Assembly (NCBI RefSeq): GCF_053078305.1
Contig: NZ_CP166879.1
DNA: 64,000 nt
Direction: 5' to 3' (one strand)
Shown piece after piece: positions 3,917 to 10,607 of this stretch (position 1 is the stretch's first letter; every line of letters starts with the position of its first letter). Made by a program: the position numbers and the translations under genes. The notes below the pieces were generated by a model, which searched no databases, was not told where the DNA came from, and worked only from the letters and a program-made list of their open reading frames with translations.

Positions 3917-4120
3917 TACTCACCACTACTCACTTTTTTTACTCACTTTTTGGAATCGCTCACTTCGTCTCACCTGAGATTTTTGGTGTTTTTATGTGTG
4001 TGTTTTATAAGTGGTTTTTTACTACTCACTTTTTTGCCTATATACAGGTGAGAAAGTGAGTAATTTTGTTAATTTTTTGTAAAATTACTCACTTTACTCA
4101 CTTTTGCTCCTCACTTTTTT
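3917..4120. repeat. Iteron array, putative island replication origin
   Basis: At least 8 direct copies of (T)ACTCACTTT(T), for example at 3927, 3940, 4023, 4086, 4095 and 4109. Inverted copies (gtgagaaagtgagta) lie at 4048-4062. AT-rich spacers. The array abuts the stop codon of the RepA-like gene. Confidence 0.7.
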
Positions 4121-5516
4121 ACAGCGGTACTACGTCATCGCCGTCAATGCGTATAGTCTCGTCTTTCTCCAGTTTTGCTAACCATCGCCGCATGTTTTTC
4201 ACGTCATACCCAAGCCGTTTCATGTCGTCGCGCAACAACGAAATAGTGCACTTGTCGCCGTGCTGTGTGCGTGACCGGATGCAGCCCCATAGCGCGGTAT
4301 GGTTTTCCGTCTTGTTGCCAGCCTCCTCGATGCGCTCCACTTCAACGGGATGACGCGGCTTATCCACCACAACCAGAGACGTGATTAACTCCCCGTCAGC
4401 GTCGGTAAAAAGCTCAACTACCCGCAAATCGTAGGCAGCTTCTTTGAGTTCCTCTGCGTCCTTCATTTTGGTACATGAGATAACCAGCGCTTCGCTTCCT
4501 GCGTCCTCCCTGCGTATCCGGTATTCAGCATCCAGTGATGCACGAAATGCACTGGAACCACGCGCCCCCTTTGTTTCATCCTTGCCGGAATGGTGAACCA
4601 CCAGCACCGTTGCCCCTGTGCGCCGTTTCAGTTCGTCACACCCACGGATAAACGCCCCCATATCACGGGAATCATTTTCATCATTGCCACCAAAGCAACG
4701 CGCCAGCGTATCCAGAATAATCATGCGTACAGGTTTACCCGTTTCCCGTTCCACCTGGCGGGCAGCGATAACCATTTCATCAACATCAAGCGGGGCAGCC
4801 GGAAAGATGGGGCGGTTTACCAGATACAGATTTTTCACCTGCTCACCGTGCACAACCTCCCAGGCTTTTACACGACGCGGAACGCCGATACCGCCTTCAC
4901 CAACCACATAGAGAACAGCGCCATGCGCCACCCTGCGGCCTCCCCACTGGCGGCCCGTGGAAACGTGACACGCCCACGAACCCGCAAGGAACGATTTATA
5001 GGAACCGCTCGCCCCGTATATGCTGCACAGCGATACCGCCGGAATAATCCCCTTAACCACGTAATCCAGTTGCGTGTCATATCCGGCAGAACCAACGCTC
5101 ATCGGTAGCTTTGTTTTGCGCTGGTGGCCTTTTTCTTCCTGCTTTTCCCCGCGCTCCCGTTCCAGATATTCGCGCCAGTTCTCCCGCTTCTGGCTGTGCA
5201 TCCCATCGGGGTAGTAATTCGCATCCTGTACGCCTGCCGCTGCCAGTTTTTGCGCGATGGCATTAATATTTGATGGTCTGATATGGCTTGCTTTGTACAG
5301 CCGGACGCAATAGCGCCCCTCGTCAATGATTTTCGTGTCTGCCAGTTCTGCCAGTTGCTGCTCCCCAAGCCATACAGGTGGCACATTATCGCCAGCAAGT
5401 CGGCCCTCCTGCTCCTGCCACTGCTTCGCGTGTGCCCAGGCATCACTACCCACAAAAATAATGACCTCGGTCATTTTGTCGTAAGGCTGTTTTTTTAAGT
5501 TCGGTGCGCTTTTCAT
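4119..5516 (-). CDS. RepA-like RecA-fold replicative helicase/initiator (AAA_25-type)
   Basis: 465-aa ORF. Walker A-like GASGSYKS, Walker B MIILD, VLVVHHSGKD motif typical of RSF1010 RepA-like ATPases. Its start overlaps the upstream ORF stop (ATGA). Iterons lie immediately downstream. Confidence 0.7.
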   Translation of the reverse strand: MKSAPNLKKQPYDKMTEVIIFVGSDAWAHAKQWQEQEGRLAGDNVPPVWLGEQQLAELADTKIIDEGRYCVRLYKASHIRPSNINAIAQKLAAAGVQDANYYPDGMHSQKRENWREYLERERGEKQEEKGHQRKTKLPMSVGSAGYDTQLDYVVKGIIPAVSLCSIYGASGSYKSFLAGSWACHVSTGRQWGGRRVAHGAVLYVVGEGGIGVPRRVKAWEVVHGEQVKNLYLVNRPIFPAAPLDVDEMVIAARQVERETGKPVRMIILDTLARCFGGNDENDSRDMGAFIRGCDELKRRTGATVLVVHHSGKDETKGARGSSAFRASLDAEYRIRREDAGSEALVISCTKMKDAEELKEAAYDLRVVELFTDADGELITSLVVVDKPRHPVEVERIEEAGNKTENHTALWGCIRSRTQHGDKCTISLLRDDMKRLGYDVKNMRRWLAKLEKDETIRIDGDDVVPL

Positions 5517-5812
5517 TTCTTACCCCTGAATGCGTTAATCATCTTTTTCATCTTCTGTATTTTTGCCAGTGCCTTTACGTTGCTGGTGGGCACGTTACGC
5601 GGTACCGCCTGCACCAGAGAAAAATCACGGGAAAACTGATAAACAGGCATCACGCAGTCATATTCGTAGCCTTTACGGCGGTAGGTGACGCACCGCCCCG
5701 CCACGCCCTTAATCATTACCGTGCCGCCGTACTGGTCGCGGTAAATATCACCGCGCTTAAATTCAGGGCGAGGCTTGCCGCTGGCAGTTAAGCCAGTTTT
5801 TTTCATGTTCAT
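5513..5812 (-). CDS. Small basic protein, function unknown (possibly DUF4222-like)
   Basis: 99-aa ORF whose stop overlaps the replicase ATG, so it is operonic with the replicase. Confidence 0.5.
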   Translation of the reverse strand: MNMKKTGLTASGKPRPEFKRGDIYRDQYGGTVMIKGVAGRCVTYRRKGYEYDCVMPVYQFSRDFSLVQAVPRNVPTSNVKALAKIQKMKKMINAFRGKK

Positions 5813-5885: not shown

Positions 5886-6200
5886 TCACGAATGGCGATA
5901 ATCAGCACTGATATCTCCGTTACGACAACGCCAGTTGTACACCTCCACAACCTCACTGAATCCGGCCACAAGTTCAGCCGTAACAGCGATGGAATCGCCC
6001 AGGCTGCGCAGTTCGTCCATGTCAGGATCAATGCTGTCACTCATGCCAGAAAGTAAGCGCCCTGTGATAGCCAGCCCTTCAAGCAGTTTGCGGGCGTAGA
6101 AATCAGCATCATCAAACATCGCTCTCGCTTCCCGTGCGTCAGCTGCTTTTATGGTTGTAACCAGTTGTTCAAGTATTCTGGTGTTACACACATCACGCAT
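5886..6200 (-). CDS. Hypothetical acidic protein translationally coupled to icd-like 1
   Basis: 104-aa ORF. Its ATG lies 5 nt before the icd-1 stop (ATGCGTGA, 6200-6193), the same geometry as P1 icd-ant coupling. Confidence 0.5.
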   Translation of the reverse strand: MRDVCNTRILEQLVTTIKAADAREARAMFDDADFYARKLLEGLAITGRLLSGMSDSIDPDMDELRSLGDSIAVTAELVAGFSEVVEVYNWRCRNGDISADYRHS

Positions 6201-6363
6201 GACTCACCCCCTCACGAATAAGGGTGACAAAAATCAGATGGGTGTGCGGAAGTTGTGCGCGTGCTTCGTGCTCAGTGGCAGCGGTAACGGTGAATATTGC
6301 AATGCTGCCTGTCAGGCACTGCATAAAGCGCCAGACAAAGTAAGGGCGTGCGGATACAGCCAT
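6193..6363 (-). CDS. Icd-like (host cell-division-inhibitor-like) small protein, copy 1
   Basis: 56 aa MAVSARPYFVWRFMQC...TVTAATEHEARAQLPHTHLIFV.... AGGAG lies 8 nt upstream of the ATG at 6363. The ORF track shows an in-frame 164-aa extension that I interpret mainly as RNA. Confidence 0.65.
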   Translation of the reverse strand: MAVSARPYFVWRFMQCLTGSIAIFTVTAATEHEARAQLPHTHLIFVTLIREGVSHA

Positions 6364-6371
6364 GTGAAAGG

Positions 6372-6586
6372 CTCCTATGTTTGAGGTAAGGAGTCTCGCT
6401 ACTACGCTGCTAAACATGGTGGCGAGACGTAACAGGGTTAGCAGACTGGCAACATAGAAACCAGCGAGCGCAAAGGCTCCCCCGTTACGCCCCGCCATAA
6501 TGCGGGTATGGGTAGGTTTACGGACACAAAAAAACCGCATATCGGAATGTAAGCGGCTGTCCGCTATGTTATTCAGGCTGCTAAAC
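6372..6586 (-). ncRNA. c4-like antisense RNA cassette 1 (targets, antisense core, SD-overlapping target)
   Basis: Plus-strand text: targets ctatgtt at 6564-6570 and 6375-6381, and ctgctaa at 6578-6584 and 6407-6413. Antisense aacatag at 6451-6457 and ttagcag at 6438-6444. Exact reverse complements. The distal target overlaps the icd-1 SD. Confidence 0.6.
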
Positions 6587-6649
6587 CCGGTCGCCATGTG
6601 GGTGACTCCGGCATCATACAGCCCGAAAGAAGAGGCGATCAACATGTTT

Positions 6650-6820
6650 TTATCCATGTGATGCCTCCTGACGGATACGGGCGACAAAAATCAGATGTGC
6701 GTGCGGCAGCCGGGCGCGTGCTTCGTGCTCAGTGGCAGCGGTAACGGTGAATACATCGATGTTACTGTGGTGGCACTGCATAAAGCGCCAGACAAAGTAA
6801 GGGCGTGCGAATACAGCCAT
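6650..6820 (-). CDS. Icd-like small protein, copy 2
   Basis: 56 aa MAVFARPYFVWRFMQCHHSNIDVFTVTAATEHEARARLPHAHLIFV.... AGGAG lies 8 nt upstream of the ATG at 6820. Confidence 0.65.
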   Translation of the reverse strand: MAVFARPYFVWRFMQCHHSNIDVFTVTAATEHEARARLPHAHLIFVARIRQEASHG

Positions 6821-6828
6821 GTGAAAGG

Positions 6829-7043
6829 CTCCTGTAGTGAAATTAAGGAGTCTCGCTACTACGCTGTCAAACATGGTGGCGAGACGTAACAGGGTTGACA
6901 GACTGGCACTACAGGAACCAGCGAGCGCAAAGGCTCCCCCGTTACGCCCCGCCATAATGCGGGTATGGGTAGGCTTACGGACACAAAAAAACCGCATATC
7001 GGAATGTAAGCGGCTGTCCGCTGTAGTATTCAGGCTGTCAAAC
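6829..7043 (-). ncRNA. c4-like antisense RNA cassette 2
   Basis: Targets ctgtagt at 7021-7027 and 6832-6838, and ctgtcaa at 7035-7041 and 6864-6870. Antisense actacag at 6908-6914 and ttgacag at 6895-6901. The backbone is nearly identical to cassette 1. Confidence 0.6.
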
Positions 7044-7106
7044 CCGGTCGCCATGTGGACGACTCCGGCATCATACAGCCCGAAAGAAGAGGCGATCAAC
7101 ATGTTT

Positions 7107-7295
7107 TTAAGCATGACTCACCCCCTGACGAATACGGGCGGCGAATACAGCGACACAACCGGACGGGCAACGGTTACGCGCTTCGCGTTCCGTCCAGGCG
7201 GTTACGTGGATGATTTGACGTTCTGACGTGCCAAAGGTGATAAAGCGCCAGATAAAGGCGGTTTGAGAATGTACGAGGGCAGGGGTAGTAGCCAT
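7107..7295 (-). CDS. Icd-like small protein, copy 3 (diverged)
   Basis: 62 aa MATTPALVHSQTAFIWRFITFGTSERQIIHVTAWTEREARNRCPSGCVAVFAARIRQGVSHA. AAGGAGG lies 8 nt upstream of the ATG at 7295. Confidence 0.6.
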   Translation of the reverse strand: MATTPALVHSQTAFIWRFITFGTSERQIIHVTAWTEREARNRCPSGCVAVFAARIRQGVSHA

Positions 7296-7303
7296 GATGG
7301 CAG

Positions 7304-7514
7304 CCTCCTTTATCGTTGGGATATACCCACCGCTGGAGGTTCCAATCTCGCTGGCGGTGGACTGCACGGAGTTGGAACTACTGGCGATAAAGGAAACCAG
7401 CCTGACCGAAGTCAGCCCCATACAGCCCACCATTGATAAGGTGTGCGTGTGCGCCGATACAAAAAAAGACGCGTTCGGCGTCTGTATCGCCTTTATCTCC
7501 AGCGGGGTTCCAAT
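7304..7514 (-). ncRNA. c4-like antisense RNA cassette 3 (diverged backbone, same architecture)
   Basis: Targets cctttatc at 7490-7497 and 7307-7314, and gttccaa at 7507-7513 and 7339-7345. Antisense gataaagg at 7386-7393 and ttggaac at 7372-7378. Strong hairpin GACGC-CGAAC-GCGTC plus U7 at 7461-7482. Confidence 0.55.
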
Positions 7515-7825
7515 CCCGACACCCGTTTTATGAGGTGCGCGGGAATCATAGCCATTTTTGATACTGGCGATCAACTGATTTTCTCTGGCGGGTATTTGGC
7601 GCGGATGCCTGTTACCTGTGGCAATATACACACGACTGTATACAATACACATCGGTTAACTCCTTATATTCCGTTGATGGCCCGTAGTGTTATTGCATTG
7701 CGGGTATTTTTTACCTGCCGTTAATTGAATGCGGCAAGGCATCACGACGGTTAACCCGTTTTGCATAACGTGAGGCGTTTTATTTTCTGCGCTGGTGGCT
7801 TTTATATTTCACATATGGGAATTTA

Positions 7826-8029
7826 TTATTCCTGCTGATAACGCTCCTCTACTTTCTTCTCAAGCCATGATTTCACCTCATCCTCAAACCAGCCAACGCG
7901 GCGTAATCCACGCTTAAAACCAGGAATAAATTCACCAGCCTTAACCATTGTGTCAATGCTCGTTGTACTAAGGCGAAGAAGATTTGCGACTTCTCGTTTT
8001 GTAAGGATTTTCTTTTCTGTAATGTTCAT
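7826..8029 (-). CDS. AlpA-family phage/island HTH regulator (excision/transcription control)
   Basis: 67-aa ORF. ...LTKREVANLLRLSTTSIDTMVKAGEFIPGFKRGLRRVGWFEDEVKSWL... matches the AlpA/Phage_AlpA pattern from memory. Confidence 0.8.
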   Translation of the reverse strand: MNITEKKILTKREVANLLRLSTTSIDTMVKAGEFIPGFKRGLRRVGWFEDEVKSWLEKKVEERYQQE

Positions 8030-8166: not shown

Positions 8167-9063
8167 TCAGTCGTCAACGTCTGCAAGCCACTTACCTATG
8201 CATGTTGGTGTGGCACCGATATCAACGCCTGCTTTGGTTAGTGCGCGGCTTAACTTGCTGTGACCGTTTTCAAGCGCCCTTCGTGGGTTTGACGCCTCTT
8301 CTTCTCCGGCTATAGCGGTGATTAGTCTTTTGATAACTCTGGCCTGAAGATTGGTTGTTTTCTTTGATGGGGGTGGTTTATTGATGTTTAATTCATCCAT
8401 GTTTTCAATAGAAGCGGTACGCCCTCCGTTTATGGCTAAATCTATCTCACTTCTGGAAATAAAAATATCGTTACGTGATATATCCCATCCCTGTAATAAA
8501 ATCGCAGCTTTAAAATCATCCTCGTCATCGTTATCGATTATCTGAATGTATTTAGTATTTGTTGTATCGTGAAATGATAATCTTTCAATGTCTGCGCTGT
8601 TAGCCTTTACATTAAGCAATCCATCAGCTTTAACATATATTTCTTTTGCGGGTGTTATTATTTGTGCGTTTTTTATCTCTGGCTCATCTTCAGCAAAAAT
8701 ATTCATGCTGAAATAATCACCATATGATGAGTAATGATAGTTTATGTTGAGTCCTGCATGTGCATAATAAAAAACATCTATTGGAGTGAGTAGCTTATTT
8801 ATAGATGTGGCATCAATGATTACATTGCAATATTCATTTGTGTAATGCTGGTATAATGTTTTATTAGCACTGATAAGCTCAGGCTTTACCCCTTCATAAT
8901 ACTTTAATGTCAGTTTTTCATTTATATTAATGCGATACAAAAAACGCATCCTCCTCGTAGCGATGAAATGAAGCAAATCATCAACGTCACACTCAAGCCT
9001 TCTGGCTGCCTTGTCTAACGGGTAATAATCCCTTTCAGGAAGGTTTATTTTTTTGTTTGCCAT
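8167..9063 (-). CDS. AT-rich orphan protein of unknown function (island cargo)
   Basis: 298-aa ORF starting 4 nt after the integrase stop. Its central part is visibly more AT-rich than neighbouring genes. I recognise no motif. Confidence 0.6.
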   Translation of the reverse strand: MANKKINLPERDYYPLDKAARRLECDVDDLLHFIATRRMRFLYRININEKLTLKYYEGVKPELISANKTLYQHYTNEYCNVIIDATSINKLLTPIDVFYYAHAGLNINYHYSSYGDYFSMNIFAEDEPEIKNAQIITPAKEIYVKADGLLNVKANSADIERLSFHDTTNTKYIQIIDNDDEDDFKAAILLQGWDISRNDIFISRSEIDLAINGGRTASIENMDELNINKPPPSKKTTNLQARVIKRLITAIAGEEEASNPRRALENGHSKLSRALTKAGVDIGATPTCIGKWLADVDD

Positions 9064-9067
9064 GCCC

Positions 9068-10348
9068 TTAACCGTTAACCATTTTTAACCCACGATAGCC
9101 ACCCGTGGCGCTTACGCTCCCGCTGGCAGCTGCCTCTACAAAATCCCCCCACCACGCCATTAACGGGCGTCGCTGCTCGAGATAGGTTGAGCGGTTGTAC
9201 GCACGGCGAACCTCGTTTTTATCTATGTGTGACAATGCCGCCTCGATTACGTCAGAGTCAAAACCTTGCTCGTTAAGTGCGGTACTTGCTATTGAGCGCA
9301 AGCCATGAGCAACCAGCCGCCCACTAAAACCCATGCGTTTTATTGCTGCGTTTGCTGTTTGTACGCACATATGGCGCTGCGGGTCGCTGTTGTGTGGAAA
9401 TATAAACTCACGATGCCCGCTTATTGGCTTCATGACGTCCAGAATGGCTAACGCCTGCTTCGAGAGTGGTATTACGTGTTCCCTGCGTTGTTTAAGTCTG
9501 TGCTCTGGTATGCGCCATTCCTTCACCTCAAAATCAATTTCACACCAGCGCGCGCCAGCTGCTTCACCTGGTCGGCAAATTGTCAGTAGCTGCCACTCAA
9601 TGACCAGCCGCGTTTGTCGTTCCACCCGTGCCGTTGCCAGCTTCTGCATAAATTCGGGGAGTTCTTCAGGGCGTATTGCTGGCATGTTCTTAACGCTTGG
9701 CGCGTTAAATGCCTTGCTTATCTCTGATGCCGGATTCGCGGCAATCATTCCGGTATTAACGGCGTAATACATGACCTCATTGATTCGCTGTGCTGTCCTT
9801 CTGACGGTATCTAATTTCCCCTGGGCGGCTAATGGTTTTAATGCTTCGATGAAATTGCTTGCTATCAGGTCTGCTATTGGCCTGTTACCGACTGACGGGA
9901 ATACATTACGCTCCAGCGAACGCCATATATCGCGTAGTGTATCTTCTGCGAGTCCTTGCCCTTTTTTAAGTTCAAACCAGAGCGTAGCTACATGCCTGAA
10001 GGTGTTCTCTCTCTTCATCACTTCACTAAGGCGCTGTTTCTCTCTGTGCTCTTTTGGGTCAATGCCACCAGAAAGAAGCGCTCTGTATTCGTCTTTTATC
10101 TTTCGCGCGCCCGCAATGCTGATTTCTGGATATGCGCCAATGCTTAACATGGCCCGTTTTTTTGTGTGTGGCTTGTAGTAGCGGTAACGCCACAAGCAAG
10201 AGGCGCTTTTGTGCTTAATCACCAGTTCCAGCCCTTCGCCGTCAGTGATGAAAAGGTCCTTTTTTTCGTTGCTGGCTTTTCGCTGGAGGCTTTTTATCGT
10301 TGCGGGTGATAAAGACTTAACTTTTTTGGTCACCGGTTCAACTCCCAT
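9068..10348 (-). CDS. P4-type tyrosine integrase (DUF4102 N-terminal arm-binding domain plus catalytic domain)
   Basis: 426-aa ORF. Catalytic-type motifs ICRPGEAAGARW, HGLRSIAST and LSHIDKNEVRRAYNRSTY (R...HxxR...H...Y). Lies next to a tRNA gene. Confidence 0.9.
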   Translation of the reverse strand: MGVEPVTKKVKSLSPATIKSLQRKASNEKKDLFITDGEGLELVIKHKSASCLWRYRYYKPHTKKRAMLSIGAYPEISIAGARKIKDEYRALLSGGIDPKEHREKQRLSEVMKRENTFRHVATLWFELKKGQGLAEDTLRDIWRSLERNVFPSVGNRPIADLIASNFIEALKPLAAQGKLDTVRRTAQRINEVMYYAVNTGMIAANPASEISKAFNAPSVKNMPAIRPEELPEFMQKLATARVERQTRLVIEWQLLTICRPGEAAGARWCEIDFEVKEWRIPEHRLKQRREHVIPLSKQALAILDVMKPISGHREFIFPHNSDPQRHMCVQTANAAIKRMGFSGRLVAHGLRSIASTALNEQGFDSDVIEAALSHIDKNEVRRAYNRSTYLEQRRPLMAWWGDFVEAAASGSVSATGGYRGLKMVNG

Positions 10349-10531: not shown

Positions 10532-10607
10532 TGGTGGCCCCTGCTGGACTTGAACCAGCGACCAAGCGATTATGAGTCGCCTGCTCTAACCACTGAGCTA
10601 AGGGGCC
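10532..10607 (-). tRNA. ileX: tRNA-Ile2 (anticodon CAU, lysidine-modified)
   Basis: 76-nt GGCCCCTTAGCTCAGTGGTTAGAGCAGGCGACTCATAATCGCTTGGTCGCTGGTTCAAGTCCAGCAGGGGCCACCA. Full cloverleaf, encoded CCA, located between mug and yqjH as in K-12. Confidence 0.93.

Follow-up and report, generated by a model that had tools for sequence, protein, structure and literature searches.

Why should three regulatory RNA cassettes, standing head to tail, each be readable from end to end as a single protein frame? The question is posed by a satellite element in a stretch of 64,000 nucleotides (nt) from contig NZ_CP166879.1 (NCBI RefSeq assembly GCF_053078305.1), here called the window, in which the minus strand from 7652 to 6193 carries three head-to-tail units, each made up of an isrK/seqA-like RNA, a C4/CI-like RNA and an icd gene. 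The gene order of the satellite is tRNA, int, alpA, the three cassettes and then the replication genes, and, to judge from sequence, the region is probably the immunity and early-control module of a satellite of the P4 or phage-inducible chromosomal island (PICI) type, built as three tandem homologues of the eta/kil unit of phage P4. The best reading of the long frames, and in our estimate a likely one, is that they would let translation bypass three RNA immunity locks one after another, in the manner of P4 eta.

The original prediction for this DNA held that each cassette is one stop-free frame in phase with its icd, and that consecutive frames are linked by 8-nt overlaps between the stop of one and the start of the next. 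The features concerned are the following.

7660..7665, minus strand: AAGGAG Shine-Dalgarno (SD) sequence, read directly, 7 nt ahead of the ATG of long frame 1 (7652-7650)
7107..7652, minus strand: long frame 1, eta-like, 181 amino acids (aa), with a 119-codon leader in phase with icd1 and 0 in-frame stops
7107..7295, minus strand: icd1, kil-like, 62 aa, with its own SD, which is overlapped by the b2 target CGATAAAGGA (from 7315)
6650..7114, minus strand: long frame 2, 154 aa, with a 98-codon leader in phase with icd2 (ATG 6820)
6193..6657, minus strand: long frame 3, 154 aa from ATG 6657, with a 98-codon leader in phase with icd3 (ATG 6363)
7107..7114, minus strand: junction 1, ATGCTTAA, the overlap of the icd1 stop with the ATG that opens long frame 2
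6650..6657, minus strand: junction 2, ATGGATAA, the overlap of the icd2 stop with the ATG that opens long frame 3
6193..6200, minus strand: junction 3, ATGCGTGA, where the icd3 stop overlaps the ATG of orf104

Direct reading bore out all the coordinates that had been given for the open reading frames (ORFs), the SD, the ATGs and the overlaps, and the frames are indeed open, with 0 stops over 119, 98 and 98 leader codons, each of the other five frames holding 1-8 stops in all three leaders. Frame 3 opens still further upstream, to a TTG at 6687, which makes the ORF 6687-6193 164 aa long. The internal icd ATGs, at 7295, 6820 and 6363, are each preceded by AGGAGG or GGAG. When the leaders were shuffled with their dinucleotides preserved, a stop-free frame appeared in 0.8% (unit 1), 2.1% (unit 2) and 1.6% (unit 3) of 5000 trials; because units 2 and 3 are copies (87% identity, with a period of 457 nt), the window holds about two independent cases of an open frame. 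Between units 1 and 2 the C4 5′ arms are spaced by 479 nt, unit 1 being the upstream one. A single AAG/AAA difference, at 6974 versus 6517, had been called synonymous in the long frame, and it is a third-position change in a Lys codon. The likeness to Icd had been placed in the C-terminal thirds of the ORFs, and it is there, and only there, that the Icd-like model NF033153 matches all three units (E = 3e-15 to 1.6e-10). In long frame 1 the Icd-like match (aa 133-176) follows a match to the Pfam family Phage_ASH (aa 35-129), and the same protein was matched to P4 Eta by BLASTP (E = 4e-6).

The links between the frames are also as had been described: each icd stop is overlapped by an ATG that begins 5 nt upstream, two of these ATGs reopening the next frame and the third starting orf104. 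Ahead of junctions 1, 2 and 3 stand the G-rich SD sequences GGGGGTGAGTC, AGGAGGCATCAC and GGGGGTGAGTC, respectively. Among the loci collected for comparison nearly every icd stop is overlapped by the start of the gene that follows, whichever gene that is, the overlap being ATGA in P1-like phages (47 unique) and mostly ATGnnTRA, at times an 11-nt form, in satellites. The three junctions of the window are the standard coupling site between icd and the next gene, two of which open the long frame of the next unit. In 29 of 30 unique tandem cassettes of the unit-2 type from other elements, the icd ATG is preceded, at a distance of exactly 294 nt, by an ATGnnTAA junction in phase with it, and the frame between the two is open.

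The same DNA is, at every step, a set of structured RNAs, which were scored against Rfam (gathering scores of 45 for C4 and 50 for isrK).

7350..7437, minus strand: C4/CI-like antisense RNA 1, Rfam C4 77.6 bits (103 bits with our own model), loops GTTCCAA and CCTTTATCG
6872..6959, minus strand: C4-like RNA 2, Rfam C4 72.3 bits, loops CTGTCAA and CCTGTAGTG, targets at 6870 and 6839
6415..6502, minus strand: C4-like RNA 3, Rfam C4 73.3 bits, loops CTGCTAA and CTATGTT, targets at 6413 and 6381
7462..7538, minus strand: isrK/seqA-like RNA 1, Rfam isrK 63.8 bits, with the a1/b1 targets, TTGGAAC at 7513
6985..7063, minus strand: isrK-like/a1b1 region 2, isrK 32.3 bits and c4-a1b1 29.3 bits, both below gathering, TTGACAG target at 7041
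6528..6606, minus strand: isrK-like/a1b1 region 3, isrK 33.3 bits, below gathering, targets at 6584 and 6570

Within every unit the C4 loops find their targets, one of these targets lying over the SD of icd, with exact complementarities of 7-10 nt per unit, and the pairs of loop sequences all differ between the three units. In the alignment of C4 homologues 97.8% of the cells were paired, against 40-48% when the partners were slid, and 17 pairs had changed on both sides, the alignment having been fitted to the model, which favours the structure. An intrinsic terminator-like site (stem 7483-7467, followed by a T-run) lies within isrK-like RNA 1. C-rich, G-poor, rut-like stretches at the start of icd1 (7310-7207, C/G 2.1-2.6) and within icd3 (6296-6219, C/G 2.4) are suggestive of the kind of sequence that is used by Rho.

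Several side observations concern these RNAs. In near-identical unit-1-type cassettes (L099, L100 and L183) the isrK terminator has a T-run of 7, 8 or 9 T, some 60 nt before the C4 5′ arm, and this difference shifts the frame upstream, uncompensated; most of these cassettes lie on contigs far larger than a satellite. The RNA region of unit 1 (7350-7538) is ~83% identical to the leader upstream of the Rha/antirepressor genes in Shiga toxin (Stx)-converting phages, and that of units 2 and 3 (6415-7063) is ~78% identical to the c4 region of P1/P7/D6; the differing relatives, together with the differing loop specificities, may reflect cross-talk of the satellite with different resident phages. In phage TL-2011c (L003) an sRNA-Xcc1 match of 79.6 bits, above gathering, was found at 2539-2622, shortly after the Rha gene that the isrK-C4 leader precedes.

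Inside the long frames lie three sites that resemble promoters, each a match to the consensus.

7545..7574, minus strand: promoter-like site 1, TTGATC-18-TATGAT, PLE-like, inside long frame 1
7070..7099, minus strand: promoter-like site 2, TTGATC-18-TATGAT, inside long frame 2
6613..6642, minus strand: promoter-like site 3, TTGATC-18-TATGAT, inside long frame 3

They stand at the equivalent position in all three units, downstream of the long-frame ATGs, and for site 1 the start predicted ~7 nt further on falls at 7538, where the isrK match has its 5′ end. Hexamers of this kind occupy the equivalent position in all the relatives examined, including TTGACT...TATATT in Stx-type phages. The -35 part belongs to a repeated box, AAAAC(A/C)nGTTGATCGCC (repeat family D6), that occurs once per cassette and is translated as 'NQLIAS' or 'NMLIAS' in the long frames. 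With these consensus matches the long frames of units 1, 2 and 3 begin 114, 51 and 51 nt before the points at which the transcripts are predicted to start, and therefore would be translatable only on transcripts that come from upstream, or by reinitiation past the preceding icd. These promoter-like sites, which the original prediction does not mention, would in this way govern whether and when the long frames are translatable.

What is conserved in the leaders emerged when selection and covariation were set side by side in homologues, a comparison that the original prediction had proposed. Read in the icd frame, the leaders had a ratio of non-synonymous to synonymous polymorphism (pN/pS) of 0.79-1.04, indistinguishable from two control frames and with no excess of third-position changes, whereas icd/kil had a pN/pS of 0.23-0.44 and a clear third-position excess. 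In the P4 type, for which experiments have shown translation to be important, the values were 0.97 for the leader and 0.37 for kil; the value of 0.36 for unit-1-type icd comes from 186-nt genes only, mixed icd lengths having given an artefactual 0.82. The leader is thus without amino-acid constraint, and the C4 RNA within it has the 17 two-sided pair changes mentioned above. In L005 the isrK hairpin has a -1 indel and the b′ loop a +1 indel; between them 31 codons, the whole 5′ half of C4, are read in another frame, after which the icd phase is regained. The leader pN/pS of ~1 and the frame switch of L005 indicate that it is therefore the open, in-phase path that has been conserved, not the protein sequence.

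These results bear on the alternative that the original prediction had left standing, namely that the long proteins are real and the region is dual-coding. On that account the 154-181 aa products would be functional, with a sequence-dependent Ash/Eta domain, a domain-swapping member of the 'Bro network', joined to an Icd domain at the C-terminus. It is here that the databases have a say, since the long frames are what Pfam PF10554 ('Ash family protein') and NF033153 ('host cell division inhibitor Icd-like protein') annotate. A protein search returned ~290 long Ash + Icd proteins with 57-96% identity, named 'ash family protein' or 'Icd-like protein'; such long forms are common in E. coli, Shigella, Salmonella and Citrobacter, and the annotation pipeline PGAP often splits off the Ash part as a pseudogene. 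A literature search on Ash family, Icd-like and PF10554 gave nothing relevant. The existence of a Pfam family and of so many long proteins speaks for dual coding, as does the treatment of eta as a Bro-network gene in PMC10111431, and so does E. coli STEC1585 (L296 1227-2651), where an AntA-type antirepressor domain at the N-terminus is fused in frame to Ash and an Icd-like end in a 474-aa open frame. The leader amino acids, however, are not under the purifying selection that is clear in the adjacent icd; the substitutions in the 'Ash' part track RNA pairing and are radical in the protein (GLTSVRL, GPTSVGL, GLPSGRL); 31 codons of L005 are read in another frame; and the N-termini of the long proteins are unrelated between elements. 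Dual coding, being unsupported at the amino-acid level by leaders with a pN/pS of ~1 and no periodicity, is therefore considered very improbable, and the 'Ash' part appears best understood as a frame kept open for translation-dependent read-through and not as a protein domain.

A few loci met in this search deserve mention in their own right. The 474-aa frame of STEC1585 is given as three pseudogene fragments by PGAP, and the next cassette there has a truncated icd. In L037-L063 and similar loci, at about 1294-1660, two Icd-like domains 69 codons apart share one frame that is open for 270-470 codons upstream; these loci have no C4 or isrK match and represent a different context for the Icd-like domain. 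In several two-gene arrays (L018-L029, about 1483-1680) the first icd-like gene lacks a detectable C4 and the second has the full cassette.

Is the openness of the frame, then, a property of the window or of the family? Cassettes for a survey were retrieved from IMG/VR by exact matches to the C4 5′ arm alone, with no conditioning on any ORF, and a leader was counted as open when it was so for at least 95 codons. (Retrieval from IMG/VR by Icd had given many Icd-like loci without C4, which were left out of the frame statistics, and nhmmer from four seeds was less sensitive than the covariance model.) The cassettes of the P4 type were open in 81 of 86, the distance from C4 to kil being 138 or 135 nt in 81/86, and the satellite cassettes of the unit-2/3 type in 36 of 37, with an anchor-to-ATG distance that is always 227 nt (92+135 or 91+136) barring L025 (91+135). 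Among unit-1-type cassettes 40/54 were open and 10 more were open for 90 codons. In P1-like phages, on the other hand, only 2/66 were open, and the distance (220-223 nt) falls into all three classes modulo 3. Indels that are multiples of 3, or that come in compensating pairs, were seen in the satellites only, and the satellite frames are open upstream past the promoter to a start codon that has an SD or overlaps the preceding stop. The original prediction had named in-frame stops in homologous cassettes as the finding that would speak against translated leaders; such stops are the rule in the P1-like phages, where 64/66 are closed, and not in the satellites, where icd-frame stops occur only in sequences with an uncompensated indel. 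The open frame is a family trait of the satellites. A degenerate pattern for the C4 3′ arm found only 4 loci in a collection of species genomes, so that within this set the particular RNA types are mostly restricted to Escherichia; the pattern matched once in an actinobacterial metagenome-assembled genome (Pseudonocardiaceae, L088 2859-2891), possibly by chance or through contamination.

A family trait need not be a translated one, and a second alternative was that the long frames are untranslated shadow ORFs: a constrained, stop-poor RNA would be open in the icd phase by chance and the openness inherited with the RNA, the array junctions would be copies of the coupling site made by cassette duplication, and the proteins would have been propagated by gene callers and Pfam. 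Much of what weighs against the bypass lies on this side. In a column-shuffle null the stretch from C4 to the ATG was stop-free in 0.57, 0.82 and 0.72 of cases per sequence for the three types, i.e., 57-82%, and frame-broken variants occur naturally (L025, L085, L096, L118 and L183). Even Stx-type phages, whose frame comes to an end at the promoter, have 71-88 open codons in the RNA part of the unit-1 type, so that openness is partly inherited with the RNA sequence. Leaders with a pN/pS of ~1 and without periodicity are equally at home among shadow ORFs, and so are promoter-like sites that start transcription downstream of the long-frame ATGs. In some loci (L005, L009, L015 and L020) the frame is open for 380-500 codons upstream; real N-terminal domains were considered for these stretches and rejected, their translations resembling chance frames. 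Further points against the bypass are that the promoters were assigned from consensus matches, that units 2 and 3 gave no Phage_ASH match in Pfam at E ≤ 0.01, that no upstream late promoter was identified for long frame 1, and that unit 1 differs from P4 in having its own SD and starting 174 nt past alpA, without the ATGA overlap of P4. The statistics themselves are to be read with care. A raw count of stop sites makes avoidance look stronger than it is, since the other frames may have lost ancestral stops; when the counts of polymorphic stops by frame were redone with rare sites only, and when the column-shuffle null was applied, both weakened the case, and the support for selection on openness, among survey sequences that are related, is moderate.

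Chance and inheritance do not sit easily, however, with frames that are open in 36/37 and 81/86 satellite cassettes and in 2/66 cassettes of P1-like phages, with indels that keep or restore the phase in satellites only, or with satellite frames that stay open beyond the promoter as far as a start with an SD or a stop overlap. Shadow ORFs are also at odds with experimental precedent, as translation of P4 eta prevents termination (PMC10111431, citing Forti et al. 1999) and orf45 of Gifsy-1 is translated (PMC4825925). Taken together we regard shadow ORFs as an unlikely explanation, and return to the translational bypass.

The mechanism proposed starts from what is observed, i.e., the anatomy, the homology to P4 eta/kil, a frame kept without constraint at the protein level and the conservation of the overlaps; translation of the leaders, suppression of termination and a relay across all three units would follow by analogy. 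In each unit the internal promoter-like site would start an isrK/seqA-like leader that carries the C4/CI-like antisense RNA, the loops of which would pair with the upstream a1/b1 targets and with the a2/b2 targets over the ribosome-binding site of icd, the counterpart of P4 kil. In the immune state, as pictured from P4, the C4-like RNA would keep icd untranslated on transcripts from the internal promoter, and transcription would end early, leaving the replication genes silent. The bypass of unit 1 would require RNA coming from the alpA side and translation from the AAGGAG-ATG at 7665-7650, and that of units 2 and 3 would be brought about by ribosomes that leave the previous icd and restart at the overlapping ATGnnTAA. 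With ribosomes occupying the targets, the isrK terminator, the C4 sequence and the C-rich beginning of icd, the act of translation, as for P4 eta (where the termination is Rho-dependent, at timm), would free the transcript from the RNA lock and from termination, whatever the amino-acid sequence. The three 8-nt overlaps would pass the ribosomes through the three units in order, and then on to orf104 and the helicase operon.

The ribosome relay of the original prediction thus fits the comparative evidence and has experimental precedents, with the change that its model is P4 eta/kil and not P1 icd-ant, the leader of P1 being closed. Termination and reinitiation, likewise, are expected at the three 8-nt overlaps only and not at icd, where a ribosome from the junction ATG would read through; such a ribosome would make an N-terminally extended Icd because the leader is in phase with icd. 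It is tempting to go one step further and view the array as a hierarchical override, in which three distinct C4 specificities could sense or silence three partners and translation relayed via the two ATGnnTAA junctions would bypass the downstream locks and terminators. This extension is tentative, and we would sooner doubt it than rely on it; if it were true, one derepression event would open the whole replication operon, and selection would act on unbroken ribosome coverage over ~1.4 kb of regulatory RNA, not on protein.

The surroundings of the array in the window are as follows.

10535-10607: tRNA, anticodon CAU, adjoining the integrase gene
9068-10348: integrase gene
7826..8029, minus strand: alpA/vis-like excisionase-regulator gene, with Pfam Phage_AlpA and HTH_17 matches, upstream of the array and the counterpart of P4 orf88
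5886..6200, minus strand: orf104, the first gene past the array, without a family match
5513-5812, minus strand: DUF4222 gene (Pfam match), part of the downstream replication module 4119..5812
4119-5516, minus strand: RepA/AAA_25 helicase gene (Pfam match), part of the same module

The genes of the replication module were named also from the PGAP annotation of a close relative, L004. This closest E. coli relative has an identical gene order, but two units versus the three of the window. Two-unit arrays are common among the collected loci, and a junction between two unit-2-type cassettes is also present in other E. coli; an array of the form unit 1-unit 2-unit 2 was met in the window only. The three-cassette array is the sole unusual part of the region. 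The 298-aa ORF between the integrase and alpA genes (8167-9063, minus strand) had no Pfam or NCBIfam match, and a 350-aa ORF at the corresponding position of L086 resembles it at the N-terminus, by eye. A below-threshold Rfam match to 'Plastid-ycf2' at 10534-10607 on the plus strand is the antisense strand of the tRNA.

The analysis reveals no new principle. It joins two database views of one DNA, the C4 and isrK RNAs of Rfam and the Ash and Icd proteins of Pfam and NCBI, and so has consequences for how hundreds of E. coli and Shigella 'ash family' proteins and pseudogenes are annotated. It also extends the logic of P4 eta/kil to PICI-like satellites with two or three immunity cassettes in series, which offer a compact natural system for ribosome traffic that overrides control by antisense RNA and terminators.

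Among known systems, the immI regions of P1 and P7 share with the window a C4 RNA with a1/b1 and a2/b2 targets, b2 lying over the icd SD; there the C4 RNA is processed from the leader, and icd translation is coupled to the next gene. P1 differs in that its icd frame is closed 11-12 codons upstream of the ATG by a TAG, with a TAA in the b′ loop, and that its overlap is an ATGA onto ant1. In the window no antirepressor gene follows any icd and the Ant domain is absent, the next gene being another cassette or orf104.

Gifsy-1 comes closer in one respect. Its isrK small RNA has a terminator, and the read-through RNA is processed into a C4-like species; translation of orf45, whose nucleotide sequence is conserved and whose amino-acid sequence is variable, is needed for the coupled translation of anrP (PMC4825925). 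Unit 1 of the window resembles Gifsy-1 isrK in having an isrK match above gathering with an intrinsic terminator, units 2 and 3 scoring below it, at 32-33 bits. On the other hand, orf45 has only 45 codons, begins within the RNA made from the isrK promoter and overlaps anrP (AUGA) in a different phase, and Gifsy-1 has neither an icd nor a frame that reaches upstream of the promoter, whereas the frames of the window start upstream of it and continue into icd.

The closest likeness is to P4 itself (NC_001609). A P4 frame that ends at 8168 is open for 217 codons, and its ATGs at 8767, 8764 and 8761 give products of 199, 198 and 197 aa (eta); it encloses an isrK match (8692-8615) and a C4 match (8507-8420) and ends as kil, which has its own ATG at 8365 with an AGGAGG SD, is 65 aa long and matches the Icd-like model. 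Eta of 199 aa matches Phage_ASH at aa 22-146 and the Icd-like model at aa 146-193. The epsilon gene starts at 8175, and the eta/kil stop overlaps its start by 8 nt, GTGCGTAA. Nonsense mutations in eta reportedly cause premature termination, and their suppression is said to have restored read-through. According to PMC10111431 (citing Forti et al. 1999, J Bacteriol 181:5225), the complete Eta is made only when a late promoter further upstream is active, its translation being coupled to the alpA homologue, and Kil is a truncated Eta that is made on occasional read-through.

Set beside this, the window differs in having three units with three loop specificities in place of one, in that the starts of units 2 and 3 overlap the icd stop before them and not alpA, and in the genes downstream, which are orf104, DUF4222 and the RepA helicase and not epsilon, orf151 and alpha. 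The long frame starts upstream of an internal constitutive promoter in P4 and upstream of a predicted promoter in the window; in both, it runs through the seqA (isrK) and CI (C4) RNAs and ends as an Icd-like kil or icd of ~60 aa with its own SD and ATG; in both, an alpA-like gene lies upstream and an 8-nt start/stop overlap leads into the next gene. Unit 1 has the same pair of Phage_ASH and Icd-like matches as P4 Eta, and the P4 type shares with the types of the window the evolutionary signature of a frame that is kept while the leader pN/pS stays at ~1. The cassettes of the window, not new in kind, would on this comparison be the nested-gene arrangement already described for P4 eta/kil, present in three tandem copies.

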